This document shows positions 9,066 to 57,566 of a stretch of 61,153 nucleotides of DNA, piece after piece. The DNA comes from Nemertoderma westbladi. Its lineage: Eukaryota; Animalia; Xenacoelomorpha. The position numbers and the translations under genes were made by a program. The notes under the pieces were generated by a model that searched no databases, had not been told where the DNA came from, and saw only the letters and a list, made by a program, of their open reading frames with translations. The stretch's first letter is position 1. Each line of letters begins with the position of its first letter. The stretch lies in the NCBI GenBank assembly GCA_032718475.1, contig JAUCBJ010006486.1:1-61153 (forward strand), read 5' to 3'.

Positions 9066-9132
9066 AACCCCATACATACTTTAAATGTTATCGGCGATGG
9101 CAACTGTTTTTTTCCCGCAATTGCATATGCTG
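9066..9132 (+). pseudogene. OTU-like cysteine protease remnant, 5' part (interrupted by E1)
   Basis: Reads ...LNVIGDGNCFFPAIAYA; GDGNC at 9093-9107 matches the OTU catalytic-Cys motif GDGNC(L/F)FRA. Confidence 0.72.
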
Positions 9133-9682: not shown

Positions 9683-9691
9683 CTCCCCCCC
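9683..9691 (-). other. E1 polypurine tract (GGGGGGGAG, sense)
   Basis: Purine run abutting the 3' LTR start TGTTAG; identical in E2 (47594-47602). Confidence 0.9.
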
Positions 9692-13163: not shown

Positions 13164-13174
13164 CGCTTGCGCTT

Positions 13175-16024: not shown

Positions 16025-16086
16025 CTTCGTCTTCTGTGTTCTGTCTGTGTCTGGCAGTTACAGTTCGGCAGGCCTAGAGTTAAGAC

Positions 16087-16636: not shown

Positions 16637-16641
16637 TGCTG

Positions 16642-30442: not shown

Positions 30443-31030
30443 CAGACACTGGTGCAGACATTGATGCAGACAGTGGTGCAGACAGTGGTGCAGAAACAGT
30501 GGTGCAGACACTGGTGCATACAGTGGTGCAGACCGTGGTGCAAACTGTGGTGCAGACAGTGGTGCAGACAGTGGTGCAAACACTGGTGCAGACAGTGGTG
30601 CAGATACTGGAGCAGACACTGGTGCAGGTGCAGACAATGGTGCAGACACCTGGTGCAGACACTGGTGCAGACAGTGGTGCAGACAGTGGTGCAAACTCTG
30701 GTGCAGACAGTGGTGCAAACACTGGTGCAGACAGTGGTGCAGACAGTGGTGCAGACAGTGGTGCAGACAGTGGTGCAAACACTGGTGCAGACAGTGGTGC
30801 AAACACTGGTGCAGGCAGTGGTGCAGACAGTGGCGCAGACAGTGGTGCAGAACGTGGTGCAGACAGTGGTGTAGACAGTGGTGCCGATAGTGGTGCAAAC
30901 ACTGGGCAGACAGTGGTGCAGATACTGGAGGAGACACTGGTACAGACAATGGTGCAGACACCTGGTGCAGACACTGGTGCAGACAATGGTGCAGACACCT
31001 GGTGCAGACACTGGTGTAAACCAGACATGG
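30443..31030. repeat. 12-bp minisatellite (CAGACAGTGGTG), about 48 copies
   Basis: Direct periodicity; source of the QTVV/GADS/CTTV pseudo-ORFs. Confidence 0.97.
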
Positions 31031-32910: not shown

Positions 32911-35010
32911 ATCAACGGATTCATTTAAACCCAGAGACGTCTTTGAAACCTACAGTAGGTTGTATTGAATCCCGTTGATCAACGGATTCATTTAAACCCA
33001 GAGACGTCTTTGAAACCTACAGTAGGTTGTATTGAATCCCGTTGATCAACGGATTCATTTAAACCCAGAGACGTCTTTGAAACCTACAGTAGGTTGTATT
33101 GAATCCCGTTGATCAACGGATTCATTTAAACCCAGAGACGTCTTTGAAACCTACAGTAGGTTGTATTGAATCCCGTTGATCAACGGATTCATTTAAACCC
33201 AGAGACGTCTTTGAATCCTACAGTAGGTTGTATTGAATCCCGTTGATCAACGGATTCATTTAAACCCAGAGACGTCTTTGAAACCTACAGTAGGTTGTAT
33301 TGAATCCCGTTGATCAACGGATTCATTTAAACCCAGAGACGTCTTTGAAACCTACAGTAGGTTGTATTGAATCCCGTTGATCAACGGATTCATTTAAACC
33401 CAGAGACGTCTTTGAAACCTACAATAGGTTGTATTGAATCCCGTTGATCAACGGATTCATTTAAACCCAAAGACGTCTTTGAAACCTACAGTAGGTTGTA
33501 TTGAATCCCGTTGATCAAGGGATTCATTTAAACCCAGAGACGTCTTTGAAACCTACAGTAGGTTGTATTGAATCCCGTTGATCAACGGATTCATTTAAAC
33601 CCAGAGACGTCTTTGAAACCTACAGTAGGTTGTATTGAATCCCGTTGATCAACGGATTCATTTAAACCCAGAGACGTCTTTGAAACCTACAATAGGTTGT
33701 ATTGAATCCCGTTGATCAAGGGATTCATTTAAACCCAGAGACGTCTTTGAAACCTACAGTAGGTTGTTATGAGTCCCGTTGATCAACGGATTCATTTAAA
33801 CCCAGAGACGTCTTTGAAACCTACAGTAGGTTGTATTGAATCCCGTTGATCAGGGGATTCATTTAAACCCAGAGACGTCTTTGAAACCTACAGTAGGTTG
33901 TATTGAATCCCGTTGATCAAGGGATTCATTTAAACCCAGAGACGTCTTTGAAACCTACAGTAGGTTGTATTGAATCCCGTTGATCAAGGGATTCATTTAA
34001 ACCCAGAGACGTCTTTGAAACCTACAGTAGGTTGTATTGAATCCCGTTGATCAACGGATTCATTTAAACCCTGAGACGTCTTGGAAACCTACAGTAGGTT
34101 GTATTGAATCCCGTTGATCTACGGATTCATTTAAACCCAGAGACGTCTTTGAAACCTACAGTAGGTTGTATTGAATCCCGTTGATCTACGGATTCATTTA
34201 AACCCAGAGACGTCTTTGAAACCTACAGTAGGTTGTATTGAATCCCGTTGATCTACGGATTCATTTAAACCTAGAGACGTCTTTGAAACCTACAGTAGGT
34301 TGTATTGAATCCCGTTGATCAAGGGATTCATTTAAACCCAGAGACGTCTTTGAAACCTACAGTAGGTTGTATTGAATCCAGTTGATCAACGGATTCATTT
34401 AAACCCAGAGACGTCTTTGAAACCTACAGTAGGTTGTATTGAATCCCGTTGATCAAGGGATTCATTTAAACCCAGAGACGTCTTTGAAACCTACAGTAGG
34501 TTGGATTGAATCCCGTTGATCAACGGATTCATTTAAACCTAGAGACGTCTTTGAAACCTACAGTAGGTTGTATTGAATCCCGTTGATCAAGGGATTCATT
34601 TAAACCCAGAGACGTCTTTGAAACCTACAGTAGGTTGTATTGAATCCCGTTGATCAACGGATTCATTTAAACCCAGAGACGTCTTTGAAACCTACAGTAG
34701 GTTGTATTGAATCCCGTTGATCAAGGGATTCATTTAAACCCAGAGACGTCTTTGAAACCTACAGTAGGTTGCATTGAATCCCGTTGATCAACGGATTCAT
34801 TTAAACCCAGAGACGTCTTTGAAACCTACAGTAGGTTGTATTGAATCCCGTTGATCAACGGATTCATTTAAACCCAGAGACGTCTTTGAAACCTACAGTA
34901 GGTTGTATTGAATCCCGTTGATCAACGGATTCATTTAAACCCAGAGACGTCTTTGAAACCTACAGTAGGTTGTATTGAATCCCGTTGATCAACGGATTCA
35001 TTTAAACCTA
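32911..35010. repeat. 67-bp satellite, block 2 (about 31 copies), same orientation as block 1
   Basis: Same unit; more variant units; grades into degenerate GGATTCATT motifs at 35010-35140. Confidence 0.98.
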
Positions 35011-35300
35011 GGTTGAAATGAATGGGGATTCTTTTAAACCAAGGCTTAAATTATTTGGGAGTCATTTTATATGGGATTCATTACAAACTAGTACCCAATC
35101 TTCGAAGGACATTCATTTCAACCCGAATGAATGAATCCCCAATCAAGTGTGTACGCGCTTTCAGACCTTTAGAAGTTTAACCTGCCAATTTTAGTTGTCC
35201 TCTTGTTTATAAATCGACTTTAACCTATAACAATTATTTGGTGCACATGAAGTTACATTAGCCGAAGCCAGTCTATGCGCGATCATTCACCCACTGTTAA

Positions 35301-36596
35301 CCCTTTTAGTACTGAATTGGAAAATATCTTGTACCTCCAGAACCTGAATATATTTTATGAAATTATAAAAATATTTCTTAAACTTCAACAAATGTCACAG
35401 GCTTGCTTCCTTTCAAAATAATCTATGTTTCCCCAATTATGAGGTTGTTTTTACCGTAGATTTCATTTCCGAAGTCTGTTTTTCTGTACAGCCTATCCTT
35501 CCTTATGTGTCTGTTGTCTGTCTGTCTGTCTGTCTGTCTGTCAAATAGAAAAATTGTGTTTCAACTGAAATCTGAATCTCCTTTTGGGTAATCAATGCCG
35601 TGGAATTCGAATCTAACAATAACTTATTCATTCGATTAGCCGTTCTTCTGATATTGTCTGTCTGTCTGTCATGTTATTATGTCTGTCTGTCAAAATATTA
35701 CTATCTAATCAGTTTGTTATTACGAATTATTAACAGGATGGCGATCTCTTTCAGGTCTGTCTGCCATGGCCACTGTTAGACTGTTAGACGTACAGTCACT
35801 CAATATAGGCCCTAATAATTAATATAATCAGATAATCGTATTATATAATATAATAAATAGTATATATCAGTATATTCCAAATGGCACAAGTAGGCTGCCG
35901 GTAATAGGCTACACTTAATTTCACTAGGCCTATTACAGTATATATTATGAGAATAAATTCTACCGTAATTCTAATTCACTACGCACTACGTACCGGTAAT
36001 AATAATAATAATAATTAATTGATATAGGCCTATACCGGTAATAAATAATTATTATAAATTTATATGATAATTATAGGCCTAATAAAAAACAGCATACGTC
36101 ATACACATAAGTGCAGCAGTGCCGTAAATTGATTCACAAATGACTGACTGAATATACAATTACTAACAAATGGATGGATGGAACGTAGTAGCTTTAGTCA
36201 CCTACAGGATAATATTATGATGTGTTATCCAATCACAAACGAGATAACAAACCACTCCAGGGTTTAGGGCACGGTACCCCGTAATGTATAATGGATAGTA
36301 GTCAACAATCTACCTACAACCAATTCGCCCTGCCTCAACAAAGGCAGCAAAGTTGGAAGTAAAAGGCCTAGATTTGAATCTCCATAGAAGGCAAGGTAAA
36401 CCCATTAGCCAATCAAATGGCTGCAAAAAAATTTCAAAAATTATTGTCCTAAGGCACTGAATAGTGAATTGGAACACTTTCTAAGGCGCTGTTGGGTGGT
36501 GGATGGCCTGCTTATCAAGTGAGATGCCATGGTACAACAGTTGGGACATAGCGCAGGTGGTTATGGTACAACAGGTGGGACATAGTACTAAAAGGG
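35301..36596. mobile_element. piggyBac-type non-autonomous element, 1296 bp
   Basis: 13-bp TIR CCCTTTTAGTACT, TTAA duplicated on both sides; empty site ACTGTTAAGGGAG in the 5' LTR near 59618. Confidence 0.96.
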
Positions 36597-36905
36597 TTAA
36601 GGGAGACTGGATTCGGGTGCTTTGAAAGTTATTGCGGTGCAGACCTACTGTATTATTCGATTGATCGTTACTATATAATTTCTGACAATATTATTCACTT
36701 TCGGGGAGATATTAACAGTTCCTTTAGGACGTGGCGCTTTAAGTATATAAAACAGAGTTATGACTTATACTAAACACAACGAGATGGCCACTGAGTTTCG
36801 TAAATAGCGCATTCTTTAGGAGATGCTTTATTATCTGTCACACTACTTCACACGTCTTCACACTACTTCACACTGATCTGCCGACCGTCACTGAATTTGA
36901 TCATA

Positions 36906-37750
36906 TGTGGCTGGCCACGAGAAAAGGGACCTTATGTCGCAAAACCTGATTCTGAGATAATCGCGTTTAAAGTTTCCCTCTATTTTTGAACAAATTTAAT
37001 TGGATTATCAATTTCGAAATGTATAAAACGATGAGGGAAATTCAAATTGGTTCTGATATTCAATATACCTAGGAAATAACTAATTACAGGAAGCAATATA
37101 AGATGCTGCAGTATTGTATATAACACGGTCTTAGGGTTTTCATGTCTGAATTTAGGACTGTAATAAATTGTAATTGTACTACTGTAATACAGTATGTAGG
37201 TACTGTTGGCCTACAGTTATTTTTTAAATGCAATATGGCTGTCATTTTCTTAATTTATCTTCGTTAGTTCTTAAATTTTGTAATCCCAATAAAGAATTCA
37301 AAATACAAATAATTTTAAAAAATTGAAAAATTAATCTTTTTTAAAAAATTTTAAATTAAAAAATTTTTTTTGCATACATGTTTTTTTGAAAATGTTGCAA
37401 AAATTTTTTTCAAATAGTTCATGAACAATATTAATAGTTTCAAAGTGTTAAAGTTGTATAAAAAGCCGAATAACATTGAGCTGCCTAATTATATAGTAAG
37501 AATTGCTATGATTTATTAATATTTTCCATTTTTTTTTAATAATCGCTTATTATACAGTAACCGCTATTAATAAAAATTTTTTTGCTACCCGATTCACCTT
37601 CACATAAATCGCTATAACTTTTTTTTAGAAATAGATATTGAGACACCGTTTTTTTTGTTAAAATCTCTGGAAAATTCTGCATCTCATAGGCCTAATAACT
37701 CAAAATCGACCTCCGGTGACATAAGGTCCCTTTTCTCGTGGCCAGCCACA
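36906..37750. mobile_element. Non-autonomous TIR element, 845 bp, TA target, superfamily unassigned
   Basis: 33-bp perfect TIR TGTGGCTGGCCACGAGAAAAGGGACCTTATGTC; empty site GATCATATATAAGG in the 5' LTR near 59920 implies a TA duplication. Confidence 0.95.
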
Positions 37751-38432
37751 TATATAAGGAGGATAGCAACTGACACATGTAGGGATTATGAAATAGCATC
37801 TAATTCACACAAAATCACTATAATGTAAGTCGCAATTGCTACAGGTAACCGGTCCCTCTTACCTTCAGTAATCAAGAAGATTGGGGGTTTTATGATTATT
37901 TATCGGTATTCTCCAAATATAACAACATATCCATCAATATACAACAATTAATAACAGACAGTAAACAGAAGTAAAATAGTGCGGTGAACAATCAATATAT
38001 GTTACTTATGCAAGTCAGTTCAGCAGTTTGGGTTGATAATAGATTTACGTTCTTGAAATCAAAGCCATCTAATGTTTTGGCCAAAGTCTGAAACTTCTAC
38101 AGAAGCACAGAAGAATTCTAAGCCGGTGTTCTGAGGCTCAGAAAAGGTAAACAAAGACCGTAATGCATTGCGCGGGTTTCCGTAGGCCCTTGTCCAACAT
38201 AAAATGAAAATCGCTCTGATTGGCTGAGCAGAACAAAGAGGTTCCACGTTTACAGAAAATCAGCTGACAGATTTCGTCATCTGAGCTCCAGTCTTTTAGA
38301 GTATTAGGCGCATTGCGGCAAAAATGACTTGTTATGTCCGCTAAAGCTTTTATACCACTCCCAGAAAATTGGATTTAATTCTATAAAATATAAAAAATCA
38401 CAGTTTCAAAAATATAAAAATACTCTAAACAG

Positions 38433-40815
38433 TTAGTCCTTCTTACGTGAACAGCGTTTACGCAGTTTTTTGAGGCTAGCAAGAGTCCTTTTCTCTTTGG
38501 GGCGAGCCACTTTACTAGGAGGGCTATAACTCCTGGGTGAAGGGTGCAATACAATTGCATCGGAAGGTTTAGGGTTGCGGTCGGTGTATCCGCCGGTCGA
38601 GGTACCCGGTTGATCAATATCAACCTCAGTGGAACGAGGTCGAACAACCTTTAGAGCGCGTTTCAAGACAGCAGCTCTCACTGGTCCCTGACGGGTCGTT
38701 TGCACGAGAGCGGTAGGTGGACCGTGATTAGTGAGAAATTTCCTCGGTTTGATGGTTCTTTCCAACTTGCGTTCTCTGGCTTTATATTCATATGGTTGTC
38801 TATGAACTTCTTGTAACTCTGGATGCGAGTTTATGAACAAGTCACCACGTGATTTATCAATGGTAGAAACTTTAAACTGTATGTAAGATCTTCCGGTTTC
38901 ACCATATAATATTGAGTTAAATTGACATAATAAGGATGGTCTTTGATCCCATAAAATGAGTTCGGTAAAGGTCTAGCGCGTAGGTTGACCTCGTGTACCA
39001 TACGACGGACAAGATCCGCTCGATTGTCCGGAGGTTCAACGAGTATACCGTCGACACGAGCGACCTCGATTGGCGGACGTTGTAACATAGGAGCGTCAGC
39101 GATAAGATCTCGAGATCTTAGGTTGATATCAACCGGTTGGGGTTGTACCGTGGCGAAGAGTTTGTCTCCGAAATGGGGAACCATCGAGGGATGAATGATG
39201 GTTTTGGAATAGAGATCAGTCATAAAGATTTGAGCTTCTGGTTGGGCTAAAGCTGCTTCTTCTTTCTCATCCATTTCGATGTGTTTCTCCTCGAGCTGAT
39301 TTTCCTCCGCTTGTCGTTGGAAGCGTTCATCCAAAAACTCTTGTAGAAAGTAGGTTCGTCCAAGTTCGATATCTTCTTCGAGATTCTGGATTTCCCGATC
39401 GAACTGAGGTAAAGCTAATTCTTTTACCGCTTGGACTTGCTGCTGCAATTTACGTTTCTCCAAACAATCGTAAGTTCCTTTTCCGATCTTTTGCCGAATA
39501 GCGTCTAACGCGTTTCGTACTACGCTCTCCTCAACTTCGGTGACGGGTTGTATCGGGGTTAGACCGGGATGATTATACGGGTTAAACGGCGATATTAAAT
39601 GTCCGCGTCCCAATCCGGCTATGTAAGATGGGCGAATATCTAAAGAGCCCGCTACCGGAGTGCCACCGGACAGCCCATGACTTTCTTGAGACGCATCTTA
39701 ATGGACACTGGCCTTAAAGATGCGGATGATCTAGCAAATGTCATGGGTGATAGGGAGTTGTGGCGGTGCAATTTTGTTGACAAGCCGGCACAGCATTCTT
39801 AAAAATGCAGCTGCAATGCAGCATGCCGATCCTAGTAGTAGCCACCGATTAATTGTTCGGGTAACACGAGATCTTTGAACAGTGAGTACAGTTCAGGAGG
39901 ATCCGTTATACTATTAGGATCAAGAGTTTGAGGTCTCACTAGGGAATGAGGAGGTCTGACCGAGTATTCCGGAACTCTGATCATCGGTTTATTTAAGGAT
40001 CGTTTGAGTCGAGCCAGCGTAGGTGATACGTCGAACAAGTTTCGCTCAAAACTCCCATAAGTATAGCGAGTAAAACTGTGTTTAGCGCAACGTCTCCGCG
40101 GATGTTTATGTCTTTCCGTTTGTTGGTTGGGTCTAGGGCATTCATCGCAATAATACCAAAGACGCACGTCTTGTAGAGGAAACGCGGGTGATCTTTCTCC
40201 AGTTTTACAATACTCCTCCATCTGTTCGAAGCTATCCGGTACCACAGGTAGTGGTCGATCGGAGGTAAGATACATCTTAGTGAAATAGAGTCGTTTGAGT
40301 TCTATCATAGGGTCATGATGTATACCTTGAGGATATCGAGTTTCTAGGTTTTGTTGACTGGCAATATTGAGATATGTTTCTCTCAAGAATTCCAGATATT
40401 CGTTGAAGTCACTGCGTTTATCCGGCTCTTCAACGTCTTCTCTTTCGAGTTGGTTGCGAATAGAATTTTTGTGTTCGATTCTCAGTTTATCGTTCCGACT
40501 CCGCTGGGTATGATATTTAAATAGGATCATTTCCCTTTCGGTGTCTACATCGTCCGTATCGTGTAAATCGATAGGGTGACCAGTAGTTAAGAAGTCCATA
40601 TACGTACCATTACGATGCGTATAGCGAGCGGTGAATTTTCTATAGTCCAATTCACACGTGAGTTGTTCCTTTGACATTGGCGGTTCGATATAACGGCCAT
40701 CGTCCTCCGTAGTAGTTTGACTAGCGTCGCCGCGTATTAAACTATCAACAAACGCTTGCAATGGTAGGGTATATCGCTCCCTGATACAAAGATCATCTTC
40801 TATCAACTCAATCAT
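38433..40815 (-). pseudogene. Accessory ORF of E3 (unknown protein), split by a LINE insertion and a probable frameshift
   Basis: ORFs 39832-40815 and 38831-39613 fuse in frame (..EQLIGG|TPVAGSLDIRPSYIAGLGRGH..; 601 aa) when 39669-39847 is removed; 38433-38840 overlaps in another frame. Confidence 0.85.
39669..39840 (+). mobile_element. 5'-truncated RTE-type LINE 3' end, 172 bp
   Basis: 7-bp TSD GCCACCG (39662-39668, 39841-39847); encodes GQPMTFLRRILMDTGLKDADDLANVMGDRELWR..stop, matching the RTE C-terminal GRP..DTG..DR..WR pattern; TAGTAGTA tail. Confidence 0.88.
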
Positions 40816-41194
40816 AGCTGCTATATGAGTTTATCGATATTATAATTAATTATAATTAGGCTAGCGGTCGTCGCTGCCTCCCCCTCAATGCCCCCGGACA
40901 GCGCAAGCTCCTCAGCGCTAATATACTGTCGCCGCTGTGTTTCTCGCCAACGTAGTAGCTACACAACGACAACAATAACCAGCGCGAGTCACTCCACTGT
41001 CCGTCCCAAGGGCTCAGAATTACTTCAGGTTCTTGCTACAGAGGTAGGGCAACTTTCACAACTGCGACTCGCCACTGTAAACACACTTTAGTAGTAACAT
41101 TCACCTATAAACGCACAAATTCCACACAACTGTCACAAATTGTACACATTTGGGCCATTTGTCCGTTAGTCAAGTGCCTTCCAGAATGCCACGT

Positions 41195-41732
41195 TGTTAG
41201 CTTATCCAATTCCGCTAACACAAACCCATAGAGTGGGCCATAAAGCAATATTGGGAGCACGAGGTTGATTACCAATCAACCTCGTGTCAGCCCAGTAAAC
41301 GGGGACAATAGGCCCCAAAGGAGACACACACAATAGAGGTCAGGGGCCAAACCCCTAACCGAGAGAGAACACAGGGAGTGAAGGGAAACACTCCAAAGGG
41401 TGCCAACAGGGATATCAACCAATCAGAGGGGGGAAAGGCATCGATTGAGTAGCAATAAGGCCACCGTGCAATATAACCAGTAACCTGTAATCATATCATT
41501 CAGTTTACTCAGTTAGTTCAGTAGGGTGGAACGGTGACTTCTATCACCGTCCGCTACCGCCATCATACTTATCTACCGGTAACTGTGCCATACTATACTA
41601 TAGCCTATATATCAACTATATTATACCTTATACATATAACCGAACATCAGAACTCTTTTACCTTTCACACACGGCGGGGACGCGTAGATAGAAAACCCAA
41701 CGGATAAACCGGGATCCGTAGATCCCGTCACA
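41195..41732 (+). repeat. E2 5' LTR (538 bp)
   Basis: TGTTAG...GTCACA; one substitution seen versus the 3' LTR. Confidence 0.97.
41472..41504 (+). promoter_or_regulatory. Putative E2 LTR core promoter (TATAA plus TCATTCAGT)
   Basis: TATAA 41472-41476 and Inr-like 41496-41504; positionally conserved with E1. Confidence 0.55.
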
Positions 41733-41896
41733 GTGACAGAACTAGTTCCACCCAGCTGCCCTGAAAGTGACAGAATCAGATCCGCCCAGCTGCCCTGACA
41801 GAGATAGAATCTTAGCAGCTGCCCTAACAGTCTGACAGTGATAGAACTGGATCCAACCAACTGACAGACTGTGGCTGCCAGACACCAAAGACGACG

Positions 41897-44800
41897 ATGA
41901 GTCAAGAGAGAGGAACGACACCGCCGCGGACCCCGGACGACGATCTAACGATCCGCGAGGCCACGGCGAGACGATACGAACCCACGACGCCGGTCGATGC
42001 TACGCCGACCACGTCGACGCAGGTTGACGCCACGTCGACAACGAGCAACCCGGCGAACCAAGATGTGGGGGGTCGTCTACAACCGGAGAGCGAGTCGAGG
42101 GAAGGAGACGAGAAGGGAGGAGAAGAGGAAGACGAGTCGACGCGGAGCGAGGGTCGACGTACCGATGTCGCCGGCCAGCCACAGGCCGAGGACGACGAAC
42201 AGTCCACCGGAACGGCGACGGTGGGGCCGTCGGTACGACGTCGGACCCGGAGAGATGGAGGAGAGGTCGGCGACGAGGACGTCGGGGTTTCTGATCGACT
42301 TCGACGGGCCTACCTCGCGACCCGGGAGCAACTGAGAGAGGCCAAAGGAGGGGCGAAGATAGACGAGGTGAGACTGACAAAAGGACTAGGTGAGTCGAAC
42401 AGATACTTTGATCACCTAGTGTGTTCTGGGCAGAGAGAACTAGCCGAGGAGAGAGCGAGGGGGGTTACCAACGAACTGATTGAACTATGGGAATGTGGGG
42501 GTATGGAACCTAGCGTAGTGTACGTAGGGCCATACTTAGTCGATGCCCGGGGAGTAAAATTAGTGGGTTGGAAGAGACCTGAGGAGGGCGAATCCGAGGT
42601 TAAACCCGAGGATTCGGTCTCGTCGGTTGGAGGAAGTTCCGGGAGGCGGGGGAAAGTTGATAGGACGGAGGGGCGGCGGGAGTCCGTCGCAACCGATAAG
42701 TCTGCTACATCCTCCGCGAAAGAAAGAAGGGTGCTGAAAATAAATCTGACGTATGAATTAGCGATGGTGGCGACAGAGCAGAATGAGTTAGAGAGACAAT
42801 TGAGAGAGGAAACCGCATGGTTGGAGAGAGAAAGAGAGTGGGCAAGGGAGGATAGAGAGAGAGTCAAGGAGTGTAGAGAGCGGGAGATGAGAGTAGGGGA
42901 CGAGCCGGCGACGTGGCTTGAGATGGTTGCGAGAGATACCGAGTTGGCCGAGCAAAGTTTACGAGAGTGCATAGAGAGAGAGATAGAGGCAGAGCGTGAG
43001 CGGGATGATTTGCGTGCCCAGCTAAGGGGGCTTGCGCAATATCAAGCCAAACTAGACCAGCGCCGACTAGAACTGGCGCGGTTGGAACTATCAGAGAGTG
43101 AGACCCCAGTTATAAGCACCGAGCGAGAAAACCAGAACTGGTGTAGCCGTACGGGCGGGGGGGGGTAGTAGTAATACGTTAGAAGTAGTTAATATTAATA
43201 GTACCGTAGTAGATAACCCTAATCCCTTTATTGCAGCAAATAATATTTTACCTGGTAGTAGTAATTTAAATTTAAATTCAAATAATAACATTAATTCAAA
43301 TAATTCGAATATTAATTTAAATTTTGAAAATAATAATTTAATTGATTTAACAAATAATATTGGGAATGGTGCTATTAATATGAGCGTGTCGGACGTACAT
43401 AACCCGGCAGACGGTGGCCTGGTAGGCCACGTAGTTAGTAGGCAGGAGGTGGCAGGGTTGAGCCAACCCGACGGCGGCCTGGTAGGCCACGTAGTTGGTA
43501 GGCAGGACGTAGCGGGGTTGAGCCAACCCGAAGTGGGCCTGATGGGCCACGCAGTAGTAGAGAGAGAGGCGGGGGTGAATAGACCCAGCCGTAGTAGAGA
43601 CAGTGCGTCGACTAGAGAGGGGTGTAGAGACGAAGTAAGAGATAGTGAAGTTAGATGTGGCGAATGGGGGGGGGGCTACCGGCGCCCCACCACATAAGAT
43701 TAGTGGTGAGAGAGAGGGGGCAGAGAATGCCCCACAAGAGGGGTATAGAAGTGTAGTAAGAAATAGTGAAGTTAGAAGTGGCGGGTGGGGGGGGGGGCTA
43801 CGGGCACCCCACCGCGAGAGATTAGTAGAGAGAGAGGGGGGGCAGAGAGTGTCCCACAGCCGTCAGCGGATAATGCGCGGGCCGAATCAGGTAAACCGCA
43901 ACACCCGGCGACGGAGAGTAATAGGGGGATTGCGAGTATCCCCAGCGGCGTGCGATCGAGTAGAGAGAGGCAGGTTGACGTCGCGAGAGGGCAGACGAAG
44001 CGTCGAGCCCGATCAGAAGAGGGAAGAAGAACAGTGGAGTTTAACCGGGAGGTCGACGAGAGATCTCACGAGCCGGAATACTACACAGAAAAGAGAAGAA
44101 GAGAACATAGTAGAAGAAGTGTCGCCACGAACGATAGCAGTGCGAGGACGGATAACGGACCGTCGACAGTAGAGATGGAGTCAGGGAGCCAGTGGGGTCG
44201 AACTTCGGGAGATTGCCGTCGCCCCGGAGAAACGCACCGCACGCCAAGAGAGGGGTACAGGAGGTACCAATACAAAGTCGAGAACAGGAGAGGGGATCGA
44301 AGAGAAGCTTCCCGACGGGATATAGCTGCCGATCGAGAGTGCAGTAGTCGCGGGGAGATTAGAGATTCGCGAAGAATAAACTTCGGTTCGGAAGGGCACA
44401 TGCAGACTGCAGGACATACTGTAGGCCTTACTGCACACACTATTATAGGCCATGCTGGGAGAGATAGAGTAGGCGATGGGGTAGCGTGAACGACAGGATT
44501 AAACCCGGAAGTCGCGGAGTACATACCGGTAGGTAGGCGAGAGGTAGGTAGGCCTATATCGGTACAGCAGCATGACTATAATACACAGGGACATAACATA
44601 TATCCAGGGGAGGGGGGAGTTATTGGAGATAGACGTATGGGCCCCAATGTATTAACATCAACCCCAGTACCAAACATACCGGCCGGGGGGGGGACAGGGT
44701 GACATTCCCCCATCACAATATCGACAATATACCCCGATAGGAGCAAGAACATCGAACTCCCTGGACGAGAGCAGGTCGTGCGGACAGTCAATACCACACG

Positions 44801-45200
44801 CGGCCGTACAGGGGACTGCTAGTCCACAGTTAGCTGGGAGCAGGGCCACACCGTGGCAGGGACAGAAAGAAAATAACACCAAAAATAAACACAATCCCAA
44901 TATACCCAGTAGGCCGAGTCTAGACAACCAAAACATTAAATCGGTACATATAAACCTAAGCGCGATACGTGAAGGACTATACAGGAAACGCTATAATCCA
45001 GGATTCCAATGTCAATTACATCGGGACGGAACCCATAAGACCAGGAGTTGCAAGTACTGGCAAGCGTTGCCCAAACGAGATCGTGTAGCCTACACAGACG
45101 CAAACGGACTATGTCATCGATGTGTGGTAAAAGGACACAGATCCTGAGAGTGTTGGAAAGGGAGAGGATGTGAAAGGACTAAACCAGGGGCAGAGAAGCC
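41897..45200 (+). pseudogene. E2 gag remnant (N-terminal region plus zinc knuckles; core domain and protease deleted)
   Basis: ORF 41897-43168 is homologous to E1 15128-16024; later stops and frameshifts at G runs; jumps near 44780 over the E1 gag core; knuckle codons at 45009-45170. Confidence 0.85.
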
Positions 45201-45574
45201 CATTAGCAAACATAAGGGAGTCGGGAAAGTAGGAGGAGGCGTGTTGCATACACACGCAGGACGGACACAGTGCGAGGGGGCATTGCACGGGCAGACACCG
45301 CGTATACCGAGGGACGAGCGGGGGTCGTCGAGGGCTCTAATGCCAGCGCACATACGAAGGGGGAGGCCAGCAAAGATGGCACCGAAGAGAGTGTGGCGAA
45401 GAGTTAGAGGATGTATAGGAGGGCAGCGGGAGAGTGCCTACTGGAAGAAGGGGCACCTGAGAGTTTTTAGTCGTCCAAAGTTTTGGACTGAGGGGGGTGG
45501 GAATGAGGGCGAGACGCCCTTCCCACGCACAAAATATAAAATAATTATTTAATTAAAAATAATTAAATAATAGA

Positions 45575-47180
45575 GTAGGTAGAAGTTAGGTAGTTAGTTA
45601 GTTAGTTAGTTAGTAGGTACGTAGTACCTAGTTAGAGAGTTAGTAGGTACGTAGTACCTAGTTAGAGAGTCAGTTAGAGGGTACGTAAGTACCGTTAGTT
45701 AGTTAGTTAGTTAGTAGGAGGGTACGTGTAGTACCGTTAGTTAGAAGAGTTAGTAGGAGGGTACGTGTAGTACCGTTAGTAGAAGAGTTAGTAGGAGGGT
45801 ACGTGTAGTACCGTTAGTAGAAGAGTTAGTAGGAGGGTACGTGTAGTACCGTTAGTAGAAGAGTTAGTAGGAGGGTACGTGTAGTATCGTTAGTAGAAGA
45901 GTTAGTAGGAGGGTACGTGTAGTACCGTTAGTAGAAGAGTTAGTAGGAGGGTAAATGTAGTACCGTTAGTAGAAGAGTTAGTAGGAGGGTACGTGTAGTA
46001 CCGTTAGTAGAAGAGTTAGTAGGAGGGTACGTGTAGTACCATTAGTAGAAGAGAGTTAGAGGGTACGTAAGTACCGCAGAGGGTACGTAAGTACCGCTAG
46101 GTAGTTAGAGTTAGAGGGTACGTAAGTACAGCTAGTTAGAGTAAGAGTTAGAGGGTACGTAGTACCGTTAGAGAGTAGGAGTTAAGGGGTACGTAGTACC
46201 GTTAGAGAGTTAGTAAGAGTAAGAGGGTACGTTGTACCGCTAGCTAGTAGAGAGAGCTAGAGTAGTAAGAGGGTACGTAGTACCGCTAGTTAGGGGTGTT
46301 AGTAGTAGCAGTAGAGGGTTGTGGGCACCGTAAGTGCCACGTAGTTAGAGTTAGTAGGGAATGCGCTGAACTTAGTGGGGCACGGGCGTGATGATGTGTT
46401 TGATGTAAGAGCAGGGTATGTTAATTAGAGTTAGTGGGAGTTAGAGGTTAGTAAGAGGGTACGTAGTACCGGTTGTGGTTGTGGGCACCGTTAGCGCCAC
46501 GTAGATAGAGGTAGAGTTAGTAAGAGGGTACGTAGTACCGGTTGTGGTTGTGGGCACCGTTAGCGCCACGTAGAGAGTTAGTAGAGTTAGTTAGAGTTAG
46601 TAGTAGTTCACATAATAACGTACCCACTCTGCCGGCACTCAGAGCGTCACGTGTAGGCGATGAGACGTAAAGGGGATGTAGAGGAGTAGAGACGGGCACA
46701 TAGGGTGCCAGAGAGTAGAAGAGTAGAGACGGGCACATAGGGTGCCAGGTAGTAAGTTAGAGAGGTAGTAGTATAGTAGAGAGGGCACATAGGGTGCCAG
46801 GTAGTAGAGTAGAGCAGAGGGGGCACATAGGGTGCCAGGTAGTAGAGCTAGAGAGGTAGTTAAGTAGTAGAAGGGCACATAGGGTGCCAGATAGTAGAGT
46901 GGTTGTGGGCACCGCAAGCGCCACGTAGTTAGAAGAGTGGAGTAGAGTTAGTAGAGCTAGTTAGTAGAGTTAGCAGAGCTAGTGGAGTAGAGTTAGTAGA
47001 GCTAGTTAGCGGAGTTGGTAGACTCGGAGGAGTCAAGTAGAGCTAGTAGAAGTAGAAAGTTAGTAGGAGTTAGTTAGACTTAGTAGAGAGTTAGAGTCAG
47101 TAGAAAGTTAGAGGCTCTCAGTTAGAGCTAGAAGTAGTAAGAGTTAGTAGTTAGCAGAGTTAGTTAGATAGTTAGAGTTA
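45575..47180. repeat. E2 3' UTR C-poor tandem and low-complexity repeats (38-bp unit and others)
   Basis: GAGGGTACGTGTAGTACCGTTAGTAGAAGAGTTAGTAG repeated at about 45718-46050; GGGCACATAGGGTGCCAG about 5 times; GTTA-type filler. Confidence 0.92.
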
Positions 47181-47602
47181 GTAAGCAGTAGGTAGATAGT
47201 ATGATAGCACAGGGGTAGCATTAGAGATTAAAGCCTTAGGGAGTGACAGAGAGTAGAGAGTAATAGTGCGGAGTGCGAAGAGAGCGTGGGCGCAATTCAA
47301 GTGTGGGGGAGGAGAAATGAGAGGAAGAGTGTGGGACGAAGAGGTCCGGGGGTATGCGAGAGTTGGAGTAGAATGGTGAGAGTGTTGGGGAAACAAAAAT
47401 TGTGTGAGAGAAGCGCACGATCGGCCCGACACGAGACGCCAGAGGGTAGTGACATCATACCCATAGGGAGCGGCCTGGAAAGCCGACTCCGGAAAAAAAA
47501 TAGACCCACCCCACACCCGATAATAAGATCGGGATCCAGCGGAATTGTAGCGCACTTGAGTTGGATGCTATCTTCTCACCGGGAAGATAGCATGGGGGGG
47601 AG

Positions 47603-48140
47603 TGTTAGCTTATCCAATTCCGCTAACACAAACCCATAGAGTGGGCCATAAAGCAATATTGGGAGCACGAGGTTGATTACCAATCAACCTCGTGTCAGCC
47701 CAGTAAACGGGGACAATAGGCCCCAAAGGAGACACACACAATAGAGGTCAGGGGCCAAACCCCTAACCGAGAGAGAACACAGGGAGTGAAGGGAAACACT
47801 CCAAAGGGTGCCAACAGGGATATCAACCAATCAGAGGGGGAAAAGGCATCGATTGAGTAGCAATAAGGCCACCGTGCAATATAACCAGTAACCTGTAATC
47901 ATATCATTCAGTTTACTCAGTTAGTTCAGTAGGGTGGAACGGTGACTTCTATCACCGTCCGCTACCGCCATCATACTTATCTACCGGTAACTGTGCCATA
48001 CTATACTATAGCCTATATATCAACTATATTATACCTTATACATATAACCGAACATCAGAACTCTTTTACCTTTCACACACGGCGGGGACGCGTAGATAGA
48101 AAACCCAACGGATAAACCGGGATCCGTAGATCCCGTCACA
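47603..48140 (+). repeat. E2 3' LTR (538 bp)
   Basis: Direct repeat of 41195-41732. Confidence 0.97.
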
Positions 48141-49492
48141 CACGTTATTATTATTTATCCCTGGATACTAGCAGTGTGCTATTTATTCCGTATGCTATTC
48201 AATGGGGCAAGCTTTCTATTGTTCTTTTAACTCGCTTCTAATTCTAGTGTGGTTGTTGCTATGGTGACATTATGGAAAGCTAGCAGTAGAATTAGGGTAA
48301 TTCTCATGCATACAGATCTGGGATGCTATTTAATAGTAATTCTTTAATTGTCAATATTCCCCTTTATACATGATTTTATGAATTTTATCGGCTATTGACT
48401 AGATATTGGAGATTCTCGCACACTAATATACTTTATAGGGTGAATCTCCGCTCCCATGATCTATTAATTAATGGAATTTTGGGAATGTTATAAATTGTAT
48501 AAAATGACAATTTATCAAATTCATGAGAGGATATGAATTTAAATTTATTCCCGTAAATTTTATTATTTAATATTAAAATAGACACAATTTTATTCCAGAG
48601 CATGTCTGGGGACTAGGATCCTTAATTCTAGGAAATTTGTCCTTTTAAGAGTATCGGTAAGTGCTACGATATCGACTAGAATTTTTAAAGGATCTGAATT
48701 TTAACCGATTTTGGATTTCTAGATTTTCTTAGTTTACAAACTCCTTAGAGTTTATTTGTCTGCATTTACTCTATTATAGCATTTGTTTTAATAGATTTTG
48801 TAAATATTAAATAGTTATTATTTAAGATGGGCACCGATTTCTTCCAGAACTTGTCTGGGGACGTTAACCACTGATTCTAGAATTTTGTCTTTCAAGTATA
48901 TCGGTGGGTGCCGCGATATCTTAATCGACTAGAATTACAGATGGTCAGGGTTTAACAGATTTATTTTGCGTTTTACGCTACTGTTAAAGGGACATCACGC
49001 TACTATATGTATTATTCAATATACGGTATGAGAGCAATATTACAAGAAGCAATGTCAGTGAGAAGAGGCAAGTCGTTTCCAAGGTCTACCCAGAGCTTGG
49101 TTTAGCCGAGACACGAGGATCTGTACTTTGCATTCCTAATACTCTACTTACCAATAATACTTGAGTATAGTAGGAGCTTTATTGTACTTTAATAAGTATG
49201 GACATTTCATCTTACTGTAGTCACGTATTTATAATATGACACGGACAGTAAGGAAAGAGAAAAATAATTATTTTCTCGCGTTGCACTAAATATAATGTTA
49301 AGTAATTAAGTAATAAACACGAGTATATATTATATATTGCACTAATCTACTAAATAATCGCTAAAATAACATTCTACTAAATAAAATTAAAGAAAACGAT
49401 TATAATAAAATTACATAATAATACATACATAAATATAAAAATAATAAAAACAAATATAAAATAACATAGTCACACACCCACTCCGTATGCTA

Positions 49493-51338
49493 TTACGTTG
49501 GGGAGTCCCTAGATGTTTGTTGGATTAGGGAAGTGGTCGTGGGAAGAGTATCTTGCCTTCCATAGTTTCTGGATAGTTCTCTGTCTCTTTCCAGTAAACA
49601 TAAACGACCAACTGGGAGATTGAATTGCTGTGTTTCGAATACAATTCCAGGTTTCTTAAAGTTACGTCGCATGACGACGAGTTCTACCGATTGCACTAAA
49701 CCATCAATGGATATATGAGTCTCGATGATACGACCTGTCTGCCATCGCTTACGTGGAAGATCTGATTCCACAATAAGGACCATGTCTCCGGAGACGTCTG
49801 ACGTTTTCTTGCTGCGCAAACCACTTGGTTCGAAGTTGTAGCGTAGGCAGATAATGTTTTTCGAAATGGTCAGCGAAACGATGAGACAATAACTGCATAA
49901 GTTGCCAAGTTTGTCGGCAGTATTCGTCTCCGTCCGTGATTTCCGATTGTGGGAGCATGGCTACAGGTTTCTTCAGTAGGAAATGCGCGGGTGTTAGCGC
50001 TTCTAGGGAGTCGGGACTCGATGAGACTGGCATAAGCGGTCTCTCGTTAAGATAGGCGGCGATTTCTTCCATTAACGTCCGCAAAAGTTCGTCGGTGAGA
50101 TACACGCGGCACGGCACTATAAAGTGAAATGCGTTCTTCACGCTCCTTATTAATCTCTCCCAACTTCCTCCCCGCCAAGGGGCGTCGGCGGCGTTGAAGG
50201 TCCAGCTAGATGCTGTTACCCTTAGCTGATCGTCCACCTGTCTTTGGTTCCAATCTTTAACGTAAGCTTTGATCTCATTATTGGCGCCAATGAAGTTCGT
50301 TCCCTTATCAGATCTCATCGTGTTGCTAGTTCCAAAGCGAGCGATCTGTTGGTGTAAACTCAGTATGAAGCTGTTGGTAGATAGATCGTTCACCATATCT
50401 AGATGGATCGCTCTACAAGTCATACAGACAAAGATGACACACCATCGCTTGACTATAGTCCTAGCACGATATACTTCAATAGGGCCAAATAAATCCACAC
50501 CAGTATTAGTAAAGGGTGGTTCATAGAAGCTTACTCGTTCCCTAGGTAGTTCTGCCTCTCGCTGTGTTAAAGGCCTACTGAATGCTTTCCTACAGAGTAT
50601 ACAGTTCCTAAGAACTTGGTTCAGAGCTCTACGGGGTTTATGAAAATAATAGCGAGTTCGAATTTCGCTAAGAACTCGTTCTCTACCAGCATGGTAAAGC
50701 CTACTGTGAACATCTACAATCATCTTGATTTGTATTTCAAGATTTCTAATGAGTATGGGAAACTTAGTGTCAAAGGACAATGGAGCATTGGTTAATCTCC
50801 CTCCAACACGTATTAACCCATCTATCATTGTGCTAGAGAAACGATCCCTTAAGCACGTCTGTGGATTTCTCAACAACAGGAAATACTTATCGGAATCTTC
50901 ATGGCATTGCAAGAGTCTCAGTATCTGCTTATTGGTTTCTTCATGCTCTTGATAACTGATCTTCTCCTTCAGAAACCTATCCGACACTTTGTATTTGGGA
51001 AGATCTTTAATAACACGGACCTGCTCGGATGTCAGTGGAGCGGTATCACTAGTGATCTTCGTCCTGGAGTAGTGATGATGGAAGCATCGCTTCAAATACA
51101 CGACGGCCTTACAAAGCCGATTCCAGGAGCTATAGTGATTTATCGCTCTTTGCAGGAGAGGTGAGAGTCCCTGCGAGACGTCTGGTGTTCCAGATTTCCA
51201 GTCTCTTTCTCTGATTTCCACAACAGATTTATTTGTGGTGGGGGAGTTTAGATCCACAGCGTCGTCCCCGGAAATGTGTAGTACAGACAGATCTATCACG
51301 GGTTTAAATAACGAACGTATAAATAATGAGGAGGCCAT
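49493..51338 (-). pseudogene. pol: E3 pol: integrase and C-terminal domain (frameshifted at both ends)
   Basis: HHCC (HSRLYH..CILC), DDE core (GVDLFGP, SDKGTNF, GSWERLIR), LTPAHFL, and C-terminal PRKRWQTGRI..DGLVQSV in ORF 49493-49819. Confidence 0.95.
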
Positions 51339-52366
51339 TCATCCTCTTCTTTACTTAGGAAGTCGGGTCCACCTAACCAGTCTGGAGTATCTATCAGTTC
51401 TTGAGGAGTTGCTCCTCTGGAGGCGATGTCGGCTGGATTAATCGTCCCAGGGCAATGTCTCCATTGATCTACATTAGAGCGACTAAGTATAATGGCTACT
51501 CTGTTGGTAACGAAGACGCTGAACTGACAGACTTCATTGGTTATATACTCCAAAACGAGTAAAGCATCAGTCCAATAGACAGTTTTCTCCAGTGGATAGT
51601 CGATCTGTTCTGTTACATTCCGGCCGATGGCTGTAGCGTATAGAGCCGCTTTTAACTCCGCTCGAGGAACTCGTAGTTTGTTGTTTATCAAGGCCTTAGA
51701 GGTAACCAAGGCAACTTTGATTCCATCCGGAGTTTCAACCCTCAGGTAGGCTACTATACCTATTCCCATATCGCTGGCGTCTCCAAACACATGGAGTTGA
51801 TAGGAATACGTGGGGAGAACGTCACCAAAATATGAACGGGAAATCATAAAGTTCTCGATGGATGGTAGAGAATCTTCCCATTTAGTCCATTTCTTTAGTA
51901 GTTCTCCCTTAAGTGGATCATCCCACGAGTGGTTTTCAAGCCACATTTGTTGCACTAAGCTCCGAGCAACCAATATAACTGGGCTAATAAATCCCAATGG
52001 ATCGAAATAAGTGCTCAGGATACTTAGACAAATCTGTTTAGTTCTAACTGGATTATCTCGCTGTTTTAACTGGAAAAACAGGATATCTCTCTCCGTGTCC
52101 CATTTCAAACCAAGCGTCTTGGTTTCCGGAAGATCGTCCTTGATAAGGTCCAGATCTTTAACACCTCGGTCTTCTACCGGGATCGATTCCAGAAACTCAC
52201 GGGAGTTACTAGTGAATTTGGTTAGTCGAAATCCACCGCGTCGTAAACACTCTACCGTTCCCTTGGCAACATCAATGGCTTCTTCCACCAATGGGAGGAA
52301 CTTTAAATTGTCGTCCATGTATATATCCCGTTTGATGTTGTTGATAACCGCTTTAGAGAAGGCGTC
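51296..52366 (-). pseudogene. pol: E3 pol: RT C-terminal half and Pao-type RNase H
   Basis: YMDD at about 52310-52321, GGFRLTKF, LGLKWD, FDPLGFISP, HVFGDAS, PRAELKAA, WTDA, NPADIASRG; in frame with the upstream ORF across a premature TGA at 52367-52369. Confidence 0.95.
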
Positions 52367-54703
52367 TCAGTTGTCATAAGCAGTGGTACGCACTACTGAA
52401 CAAGCGTTCGAGGGGCTCGAGATGATCCCGAAAGCCTGGATGGTCATCCAGTACTCCACCGGTTTTTGGTTGAGGTCTCCTTCAGGCCACCACAGAAATC
52501 GTAGGCTGTCTCGATCCCTATCCAGCGCCTTGACTTGTAAGAACATGCCTTCTATATCCGAAGCGAAAGCGATAGAATATTGCCGTAATCTTAATAGTAT
52601 TCCCAACAAGGATTGGAGTAAGTTGGGTCCCGGCAACAATTCGGAGTTCAGGGATTGGCCCATGTAAAGGGCGGAGCCGTCGAACACTACCCGGACTTCG
52701 TTGGGTTTACCGGGTTTGGGAACGTAATGATGTGTTAGATAATACGTTCTCTCTGTGATGGGTGTTTCTTCCGGTACTCGCTCCGCGTATCCCTTATCGA
52801 TGAATTTCTTCAGCTGGGTCTTATACATTTCTTTAGCTGAAGCATTTGCCGTAAGATGCCGATGTAGTTGCACGATTCTCTGCTTGGCTCTTTCTTCCTC
52901 GACGGACAGGGCCTTGTCGTAAGAATTAGGCTCTACTGCTTCTTGAGTGAAGAATCGTACGGCGTGTTCATCGCGAATCTTATTGTTGTATCGATCTATC
53001 ACCTCGTTTAATTCGTCGATGTAGTCGGATTGTCCGCCATGATTGATGAGATGGCACAGGTTTACTTGGTTTCGCCAAGTCTCATTTTCGGTGAGGAGGT
53101 CTATTGTATTTTCCTCGTCGAATAATTGGCTAATGTCGTCATTATCTGAGGAGTATGGTGTTCCCTCAGTTGTGGTTTCTCCCTCACTGATTTCTTCTTC
53201 CCATTCACTCACCTGATGTATCTTTTCATTAGGTAGTCTTTCCATGAGTGTTCTACGGGAAGGTCCAGTGAAGTACCAACCTACTCTCGTTCTTCCCGCA
53301 TATGTTTGTAATGGTTGCGGTCGAGCAGGCCGTTTTTCTAATGTCTCAAGCGCCTCATGCGCATTTTGGCCGATCAATATCTGTACCCCTGCGTAGTCGG
53401 TGTTGAATCTAGGGATATCATGCTGCTGGGTAAAATGATCTTCATCCCAGTTATAAGGTTCCACTTGGCTGGTAGCAAAGTTCTTTATCGCCACCATTTT
53501 TACTGACCTTATGCTATGTTCTCCTAGTTCATCCTGGGGAGTGGACAACGCGCCTACATAATAATCTGTAGCTACTGTGGATTTCCAAACCTGCATAATT
53601 CCTGAAAGGTTCAACTTAGTTCGGAACTTGGGTTGTCCAGCAAAGATGTCTTCGGCTAGTTCTTTGTCGATGAATGTACCTGTGCTGCCGGAGTCAAGGA
53701 GGGCGTTTACTATAAAACTCTTACCTAACTCGTGGACTCTCAGCTGCACTACTGGGAATTCCCGAATTCCAACGTTGGAAGTTAGTGCTTTCCAAGATGG
53801 TTGTCGGTCCGGAATAGTCAGTTGCGCTTCGTTATCGGTTTCAGTCTCATACGTAAGCGCTCGATACACTGCGGTGTTTATCATATAACAGGATTCGTTT
53901 TCGTCGGAGAATTCGTCCGTGTAGAATCCTTCCATCTCAGAGCTGTGGTCAGTGTCGTTCACATCACTGAATTGGACATGTAGTTCGGACTCACTTACCT
54001 GACTCGTGCGGGTTCTTTCAAATTCTGTGTGCAGCAAGATATGATGTATCGCGCCGCACTTAGCACACCTCGCGTTGGAGTAACAGGTCCGCCGTTGGTG
54101 TCCTTGTCTGAGACAATTATAACACAACCGCTTATCCCACATGACATCACGTCTATCCTTTAGGGATTTCTTCAAGAATTCATCACATCCACTCAAACGA
54201 TGGGGCCCGTCGCACAATGCACATTTGGGTTTGATGTTACTTACTTTACCCTGTGTGGTGTTGTGCACACTTGTTCTTTCCTCGGGCTTTCTTCCATGCA
54301 TTATCTTAGGAGACGTGGGAGGAGTTGTTGTTACCTGTTCTCTCCTGTCACTGGTTCGGGACTTAGATTTACTTACGTCTTTGCGGATTTTGTTAACATA
54401 GTAAGATCTTTCGGTGTCTTTCCCGCTGTTCTCCTCGTGGGAGGTCTGGCTTTCGCCGTCGTCTGTATAACACACTAGTGTTACCTTTCTCCTAGAAATG
54501 GGTTTTTCACTCACCTTGTTTTCCGTTGTCTTCTCTCGGGACTGCTTTAGGAGCTGTAATCTTACCTCTACATTTAAGAATGACATGAGATCAGCCATGG
54601 TAGGGTCTCTTTGTTGCTGGTCCATCATATGGAGAACTCTTTTGTCCCAACGAGTACCTACTCCACCCTTTGGCAAAGTAGATGCTACGGCTCCAACAAC
54701 CAT
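52367..54703 (-). pseudogene. E3 gag zinc knuckles, protease and RT N-terminal half
   Basis: BEL triple knuckle (CALCDGPHRLSGC, CYNCLRQGHQRRTC, CAKCGAIHHILLH), LLDSGS, RVVFDGSA, GPNLL, SDIEGMFLQV. Confidence 0.95.
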
Positions 54704-57430: not shown

Positions 57431-57566
57431 GATTTATATTGCAGTTGAATGCCTACTACTATAACGACAGTTAAAGTAAGTCTAGTAATTCAGTATCAAC
57501 TGTAAGCCAAGTAATTACTACCGATACCGTTACTCAGCGTAACGTGATATATATATAATATATTAA

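Follow-up and report, generated by a model that had tools for sequence, protein, structure and literature searches.

The stretch of DNA analysed here, called the window, comprises positions 1-61,153 of the forward strand of contig JAUCBJ010006486.1 from Nemertoderma westbladi (assembly GCA_032718475.1). Self-comparison and Tandem Repeats Finder revealed three long terminal repeat (LTR) elements, E1, E2 and E3, in this repeat-rich eukaryotic sequence. In all three, the bases directly following the 5′ LTR are complementary to a stretch inside the element's own LTR. In E1 and E2, this complementarity covers nine bases (9/9 and 8/9), and we consider it probable, from the arrangement of the sequences, that a piece of the element's own RNA would be cleaved at this stretch and would prime the synthesis of minus-strand DNA, replacing the host tRNA as in the retrotransposon Tf1. 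We infer that such Tf1-type self-priming is the most economical reading for E1, E2 and E3.

Pairing between the LTR and the bases that follow it

The elements, their LTRs and the sites that concern the pairing are as follows.

9133-16636, minus strand: E1, LTR element, sister of E2
41195-48140, plus strand: E2, LTR element, sister of E1, nested inside E3
16087-16636, minus strand: E1 5′ LTR, 550 bp, 99.6% identical to the 3′ LTR at 9133-9682
41195-41732, plus strand: E2 5′ LTR, 538 bp, TG...CA, 99.8% identical to 47603-48140
47603-48140, plus strand: E2 3′ LTR, ending in ...GTCACA, with the target duplication directly after it
59433-60525, minus strand: E3 5′ LTR, 1093 bp, direct repeat with 35150-38347
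35150-38347, minus strand: E3 3′ LTR, interrupted by two insertions (35301-36595 and 36907-37748)
41530-41538, plus strand: AACGGTGAC in the E2 LTR, directly before TTCTATCAC
41539-41547, plus strand: E2 LTR 9-mer TTCTATCAC, predicted self-primer, homologous to the E1 site
41733-41741, plus strand: predicted primer-binding site (PBS) of E2, GTGACAGAA, the first nine bases after the 5′ LTR
16284-16292, minus strand: E1 LTR 9-mer AGTTAAGAC, after the same AACGGTGAC as in E2
16078-16086, minus strand: predicted PBS of E1, GTCTTAACT, directly after the 5′ LTR, 9/9 complementary to 16284-16292
60214-60224, minus strand: E3 LTR 11-mer AAATCTATTAT, inside the 5′ LTR, also in the 3′ LTR copy at 38036-38046
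59422-59432, minus strand: predicted PBS of E3, ATAATAGATTT, at offset 0 from the LTR, 11/11 complementary to 60214-60224

The LTRs of E1 and E2 are about 76% identical in the self-comparison and have the TGTTAGC start and the GTCACA end in common. In both, the complementary site starts at LTR position 345. The E2 9-mer is found again in the 3′ LTR at 47947-47955, and its complementarity to the PBS is 8/9, with one central A.C mismatch. The pairing in E1 is perfect over nine bases and becomes 10/11 when one mismatch is allowed. The LTR of E3 is unrelated to those of E1 and E2; this means that the feature is present in more than one BEL/Pao family of this genome. In all three elements the pairing begins at the first post-LTR base, which pairs with the last base of the LTR stretch. 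This is the geometry that a primer needs.

The probability of such complements by chance was estimated by keeping the post-LTR sequence and dinucleotide-shuffling the LTR (5000 shuffles). A perfect complement of 9 nt at offset 0, as in E1, arose in 6 of the 5000 shuffles (P 0.0012), and one of 11 nt, as in E3, in 13 of them (P 0.0026). Taken alone, E2 does not pass such a test of perfect matches: no run exceeds 5 nt, a length equalled by 0.48 of the shuffles. The only match in the E2 LTR with at most one mismatch is the site homologous to that of E1, with a P value of about 6e-5 for the fixed site and 0.03 for a position anywhere in the LTR. The controls, namely the flank after each 3′ LTR, the sense sequence instead of the complement, and the post-LTR sequence of each element compared with the LTRs of the other elements, gave 6 nt or less.

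None of the post-LTR sequences has the TGG start of a PBS of the tRNA type. The Belpaoviridae profile of the international committee for virus taxonomy (ICTV) gives an 18-nt PBS matching the 3′ end of tRNA-Arg or tRNA-Gly, describes the family as primed by host tRNA, and calls its replication poorly understood. The sequences beginning with GTCTTAACT, GTGACAGAA and ATAATAGATTT do not fit this 18-nt pattern, as TGG is absent from the first 14 nt after all three LTRs. No tRNA gene was found in the window. In addition, a PBS complement in two parts, on either side of a GT/GC...AG intron within the LTR, was looked for in E1, E2 and E3, with 0 split matches.

Comparison of E1 with E2 gives further information on the nine pairs. 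Five are changed on both sides, three are invariant, and one is broken in E2. When the partner was slid by 1-3 columns, 0-1 double-changed pairs were left and 31-45% of the cells were paired, as against 97.6% in the real structure. The 9-mers are hot spots of divergence between conserved flanks, with 4/9 and 3/9 positions identical between E1 and E2. The first-pass annotation of this DNA had described a joint replacement of both sites between the sister families with the complementarity kept, and the compensatory changes in 5/9 pairs agree with this description. It had also taken the joint replacement as the strongest sign that the pairing is selected. This holds in part: the replacement is real, and E3 adds an independent 11/11 case, but selection is not established, because two sequences were compared and because, on the model of Tf1, a PBS could be re-copied from the primer and would then show matched changes in the absence of selection on each site.

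Population variation was examined in contigs of three DNA runs with the same organism label (X1, X2 and X5) and of a further run, X6, possibly of RNA, from another organism; the X6 contigs covered only the U3 region of the LTR. The family is very abundant and has many subfamilies, with 2063 X1 contigs lying on 801 bases of the E2 LTR and leader. In X1, X2 and X5, no variant letter with a share of at least 2% was found at 41536-41587 or at 41733-41741. Positions near these invariant 9-mers do vary; at 41535, about two thirds of the depth has G instead of T. The E2-type pair, its mismatch included, is therefore fixed in its subfamily. The first-pass annotation had held that the pairing would be called into question by an E2 consensus lacking complementarity, and the consensus retains it.

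Over the PBS, the depth in X1 drops: it is about 48,000 at 41728-41736 and about 13,000 at 41737-41745. Many contigs stop fitting at 41732-41736. These stops would come from 3′ or solo LTRs and from subfamilies with another PBS. Other contigs, from other subfamilies, keep the PBS as far as 41741 and then continue into a different leader (loose ends in three contigs each of X1 and X2, and joints in X2). Conservation among the subfamilies ends at the end of the PBS 9-mer (41741). No contig among the pieces listed, which were the longest, spanned both 9-mers.

These data bear on the possibility that the complementarity is a functionless by-product of chance or of shared ancestry. The runs are indeed short, the E2 pair shows no significance in the perfect-match test when taken alone, and 9-mers that differ from the motif at one position at most occur often in the window (26 observed against 16.45 expected). 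Such an origin nevertheless seems highly improbable in view of the three independent cases at offset 0 (P 0.0012, about 6e-5 for the fixed site, and 0.0026), the five compensatory double changes, the controls of 6 nt or less, and the invariance of both 9-mers in an abundant family whose neighbouring stretches vary.

PBS-like copies in the E2 leader

The leader of E2 contains further copies of the PBS motif.

41732-41846, plus strand: tandem repeat of four units, each with A followed by a PBS-like 9-mer (at 41733, 41767, 41801 and 41838)
41767-41775, plus strand: 9-mer of unit 2, GTGACAGAA
41801-41809, plus strand: 9-mer of unit 3, GAGATAGAA, with ACA before it
41838-41846, plus strand: 9-mer of unit 4, GTGATAGAA, 9/9 complementary, with ACA before it, in a more diverged unit

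The first-pass annotation had reported the motifs at 41539-41547, 41733-41741 (8/9), 41767, 41801 and 41838 (9/9, preceded by ACA), and all of them were found at these positions. Tandem Repeats Finder gives a 34-bp tandem repeat at 41732-41809 (2.3 copies, 84% matches). The four copies are not independent events, because they are units of this one repeat. The leader sequence that comes after unit 4 has its homologue in the single-unit leader of E1. Unit 4 is thus homologous to the single PBS of E1, and units 1-3 are extra in E2; the 9/9 unit may be the oldest one.

It had been proposed in the same annotation that the extra copies are alternative priming sites or scars of re-priming. In line with functional sites, ACA, which resembles an LTR end, precedes units 3 and 4, and unit 4 pairs perfectly (9/9), at a duplex energy of -10.6 kcal/mol. 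The 9-mers differ at 7/54 of the positions compared among the four units and the rest of the units at 47/129; the Fisher P value of 0.0013 for this difference is too favourable, since the six comparisons depend on one another, and the better preservation of the 9-mers is only a hint. Several observations speak against the proposal. The copies belong to one 34-bp tandem repeat, and the element has at least eight other internal tandem arrays. The number of units varies among copies, as slippage would give: one X5 contig (34-nt skip) and one X2 contig have one unit fewer. Furthermore, the 3′ LTR of E2 ends at the equivalent of 41732, with the target duplication next to it. This means that the cDNA of E2 started at unit 1 (8/9) and not at the 9/9 copy under any priming model. 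The 9/9 copy, as the homologue of the E1 PBS, may simply be the oldest unit. LTR ends shifted to 41766, 41800 or 41837 were absent among the contigs listed, in which no proper search for shifted ends was possible. Functional alternative sites or scars therefore appear improbable; most likely, the three extra PBS-like copies arose when a 34-bp unit with the PBS in it underwent ordinary tandem duplication.

Predicted fold and the proposed course of priming

The features that concern the fold and the start of the transcript are listed below.

41710-41727, plus strand: U5 hairpin CGGGATC / GATCCCG, 5 nt before the E2 PBS, in the minimum free energy (MFE) and centroid folds of E1 and E2
41557-41561 and 41673-41677, plus strand: long-range helix CCGCC / GGCGG, inside the primer/PBS loop, in the folds of E1 and E2
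41685-41693, plus strand: TAGATAGAA within U5, competing partner of the E2 9-mer
41470-41522, plus strand: TATA-like AATATAA and three TCAGT (41500, 41509 and 41518), possible promoter and start sites of E2

In the proposed course of self-priming, the LTR 9-mer would fold back on the post-LTR 9-mer and close a loop of about 185 nt, which would enclose the conserved CCGCC/GGCGG helix and the conserved U5 hairpin. The RNA would be cut just 3′ of the 9-mer, that is, after 41547 in E2 and after 16284 in E1. For E1 and E2 the cutting enzyme would presumably be an RNase H supplied in trans by an autonomous partner. Extension of the new 3′-OH through U5 and R would then place the end of the LTR at 41732 in E2. 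The plus strand could copy the primer, and changes in the LTR 9-mer could in this way reach the PBS, which would account for the rapid and matched divergence between subfamilies.

The predicted folds agree with this course for E1 and E3. The MFE and centroid folds of E1 (z = -3.6) contain the 9-bp primer/PBS helix, the CCGCC/GGCGG helix, and an 8-bp hairpin (CGGGATCC / GGATCCCG) located 5 nt before the PBS. In E3, the primer/PBS helix forms the closing stem of an 815-nt stretch, in the MFE fold and in the centroid fold alike. The duplex energies are -10.9 kcal/mol in E1 and -8.5 kcal/mol in E3. The 7/7 pairs of the U5 hairpin, whose E1 homologue lies at 16092-16111 on the minus strand, and the 5/5 pairs of the CCGCC/GGCGG helix are invariant between E1 and E2. 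Since all pairs of these inner helices are invariant, they neither support nor contradict the structure.

Several points weigh against self-priming. The pairing of 9 nt in E1 and 8/9 in E2 is shorter than that of Tf1, which comprises 11 nt, the first 11 nt of its transcript. PMC6317226 requires of a self-primer that an LTR-internal sequence be complementary over at least 10 bp to sequence lying 0-5 bp behind the 5′ LTR. E3 reaches this length (11), and E1 (9) and E2 (8/9) fall short of it. In E2 the duplex adjacent to the LTR is weak, at -6.3 kcal/mol compared with -10.6 kcal/mol for the 9/9 copy; units 2 and 3 give -6.4 and -7.9 kcal/mol. The MFE fold of E2 pairs the 5′ site (41537-41556) with U5 at 41665-41696 instead of the PBS, with a duplex energy of -20.5 kcal/mol, and forcing the 9-mer onto any of the PBS copies costs 6-11 kcal/mol. 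The covariation comes from two sequences, E1 and E2. In addition, the A.C mismatch of E2 is fixed, with no T at 41737 at a share of 2% or more, an outcome that would not be predicted if the PBS were simply re-copied from the primer. One speculation is that biased repair of a T/G heteroduplex towards G:C would explain the fixed mismatch.

The start of the transcript raises a further point of this kind. The TATA-like box precedes the first TCAGT by about 30 nt, and the TCAGT motifs, which are candidate initiators, are 9 nt apart. This arrangement is conserved between E2 and E1, where TATATAT is at 16350-16356 and TCAGT at 16323-16327 and 16314-16318 on the minus strand. Judging from these motifs, transcription may begin 17-37 nt upstream of the 9-mer, and the primer may then be internal to the transcript, unlike the RNA 5′ end used by Tf1.

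Concerning the competing U5 partner, the stretch at 41686-41699 varies among genome copies by substitutions and indels, and it is absent from E1. The U5 site 41685-41693 was ruled out as a conserved alternative partner for these two reasons.

It might be considered that the pairing between LTR and leader is a long-range RNA structure, serving packaging, dimerisation, translation control or masking of the PBS, and that a host RNA primes at the same post-LTR sequence. Retroviral leaders form helices between U5 and the leader around the PBS. The 5′ site of E2 has several alternative partners, of which the MFE fold prefers the one in U5, as would be expected of an RNA switch. The possible transcript start upstream of the 9-mer also fits such a structure, and the ICTV profile treats the family as tRNA-primed. 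This explanation would require three host primers for the three post-LTR sequences, each of them with the same sequence as part of the element's own LTR, and none of the three sequences starts with TGG. Moreover, the pairing starts exactly at the first post-LTR base in all three elements; priming explains this position and a generic structure does not. We consider the structural explanation unlikely.

Self-priming might also be placed in a wider frame, which we regard as doubtful. A whole branch of the BEL/Pao elements of animals might have given up tRNA priming in favour of a short primer from inside the LTR transcript instead of from its first bases. The pair would be re-copied in each cycle and would serve as a fast-drifting "address" of the subfamily, kept by riders such as E1 and E2, and the PBS arrays in the leader would serve to tune priming, as additional landing sites or as decoys.

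The elements, their surroundings and known systems

Other features of the three elements are given here.

47594-47602, plus strand: E2 polypurine tract GGGGGGGAG, adjoining the 3′ LTR
9683-9691, minus strand: E1 polypurine tract, identical GGGGGGGAG, directly before the 3′ LTR
11304-13229, minus strand: E1 gag-protease open reading frame (ORF), 641 amino acids, with Pfam matches to DUF1759 (BEL/Pao gag, E 4e-11) and Asp_protease_2
41828-43168, plus strand: ORF upstream of gag, E2
15128-16057 and 13771-15165, minus strand: ORFs upstream of gag, E1
49496-57433, minus strand: E3 coding region with gag, protease-reverse transcriptase (RT) region and integrase

E1 is flanked by a perfect 5-bp target duplication, CAGCA (16637-16641 and 9128-9132), and E2 by another, CACGT (41190-41194 and 48141-48145). 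The identity of the LTRs, the LTR ends, the target duplications and the polypurine tracts show that E1 and E2 are true and recent insertions made by an integrase. Among the 26 sense ORFs of at least 60 amino acids in E1 and E2, only the E1 gag-protease had a Pfam match; no match to RT, RNase H or integrase was found among them. E2 is without some parts present in E1. As both elements are without RT and integrase, they are non-autonomous BEL/Pao derivatives that have to be mobilised in trans. The exact 31-nt LTR pattern had no match in viral_contigs or metagenome_contigs, and the E1 gag-protease had no relatives in viral_contigs.

The ORFs upstream of gag are long and common to E1 and E2 (309-464 amino acids); they have acidic and Asn-rich stretches and belong to no Pfam family. 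Internal tandem repeats are numerous in both elements, for example at 45651-46076 (38 bp x 11) and 10188-10441 (69 bp x 3.7).

E3 has the full domain set of BEL/Pao (DUF1759, Peptidase_A17, and integrase with DUF5641), whereas E1 has only DUF1759 and protease. Its Pfam matches are DUF1759, Peptidase_A17 (E 1.6e-36), Integrase_H2C2 and DUF5641, and the nearest atlas clusters of its proteins are Pao peptidase/RT proteins of animals. No relatives of E3 Pol were found in viral_contigs or metagenome_contigs. No matching target duplication was seen at the LTR ends of E3 when these were aligned. The gag-protease of E3 is only 24-28% identical to that of E1 and the LTRs are unrelated; E3 was thus ruled out as the autonomous partner of E1 and E2.

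Three ORFs (179, 288 and 332 amino acids) lie at 38436-40830 on the minus strand between the integrase and the 3′ LTR of E3. They show no Pfam match, and their location is where some BEL/Pao elements have an env-like gene. A partial, diverged duplicate of the first 45 nt or so of the E3 LTR is found at 60545-60590 (minus strand), adjoining the 5′ LTR on the upstream side. A perfect 36-bp inverted repeat (36903-36938 and 37718-37753) flanks the insertion of about 850 bp in the 3′ LTR, which looks like a small transposon with terminal inverted repeats, similar to a miniature inverted-repeat transposable element.

The window contains other repeats. A 67-bp satellite forms two arrays with 97-98% matches, at 17355-29191 (176.6 copies) and 32911-35008 (31.3 copies); the 3′ LTR of E3 adjoins the second array. 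The arrays are separated by about 3.7 kb, which includes a 12-bp repeat at 30443-31016. A 29-bp minisatellite (6412-8715, 79 copies, 95% matches) is located just upstream of the 3′ end of E1, and a 22/44/66-bp repeat occupies 1-475.

Among known systems, the Tf1/sushi group offers the closest likeness in the working of the PBS. In PMC4600332, Tf1 is described as self-primed by the 5′ segment of its own mRNA, and the same is proposed for Tj1. According to the same source, the post-LTR PBS of Tf1 and Tf2 (Schizosaccharomyces pombe) and of Tj1 (S. japonicus) is complementary to the transcript of the element's own LTR, as it is here, and does not resemble a tRNA-type site; in the window, the corresponding observation is the lack of TGG after the LTRs. 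Tf1/sushi elements are Ty3/gypsy chromoviruses and the proteins of E1 and E3 are of the BEL/Pao type, so that the likeness would lie in the working and not in group membership. A further likeness is the U5 hairpin of E1 and E2, since Lin and Levin reportedly described, in 1998, a hairpin in U5 next to the PBS of Tf1. The differences from Tf1 are the length of the pairing (9 nt in E1 and 8/9 in E2, against 11 nt), the position of the primer stretch, which may lie 17-37 nt inside the E1 and E2 transcripts instead of at the first base, and the lack of RT and RNase H in E1 and E2, in which cleavage would occur in trans.

PMC6317226 also predicts self-priming in plants, for Tcn1-clade chromoviruses and TAR-lineage Ty1/copia elements; as here, the prediction comes from sequence alone. 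These elements belong to other superfamilies and hosts than E1-E3, and E3 is the only element of the window with the complementarity of at least 10 bp used there.

The elements of the window resemble canonical BEL/Pao elements (Tas, Pao and BEL), as these are described by the ICTV, in the DUF1759 Gag, the Pao-type Pol, the DUF5641 integrase, the LTRs of 0.2-1.2 kb and the polypurine tract of about 10 nt. E1 and E2 also have the LTRs, the polypurine tract and a target duplication within the 4-6 bp of BEL/Pao. They differ in the PBS, which is of the tRNA type in canonical elements according to that text, and which in the window is replaced by TGG-less sequences that match the element's own LTR. 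Like large retrotransposon derivatives (LARDs) and miniature retrotransposons with terminal repeats (TRIMs), E1 and E2 retain their LTRs, a predicted PBS and a polypurine tract but no RT or integrase, and have near-identical LTRs and target duplications. Unlike such derivatives, E1 encodes a gag-protease, together with long ORFs that belong to no known family, and the cis signals kept in E1 and E2 include the self-primer/PBS pair. No report of self-priming in BEL/Pao was found in a full-text literature search, whose reach did not include subscription journals and Repbase.

The signature of self-priming is thus present in three BEL/Pao elements of two distant families within one window, and one pair of these elements, E1 and E2, shows matched changes. 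The mechanism would thereby be extended to a third superfamily of LTR retrotransposons, non-autonomous derivatives included, which bears on the question of whether self-priming is ancestral or has arisen repeatedly. Annotation pipelines that require a tRNA-type PBS would miss or down-rank such elements, and host defences aimed at a PBS of this type would probably not see them. Furthermore, the primer/PBS pair provides a compact marker for the typing of subfamilies.

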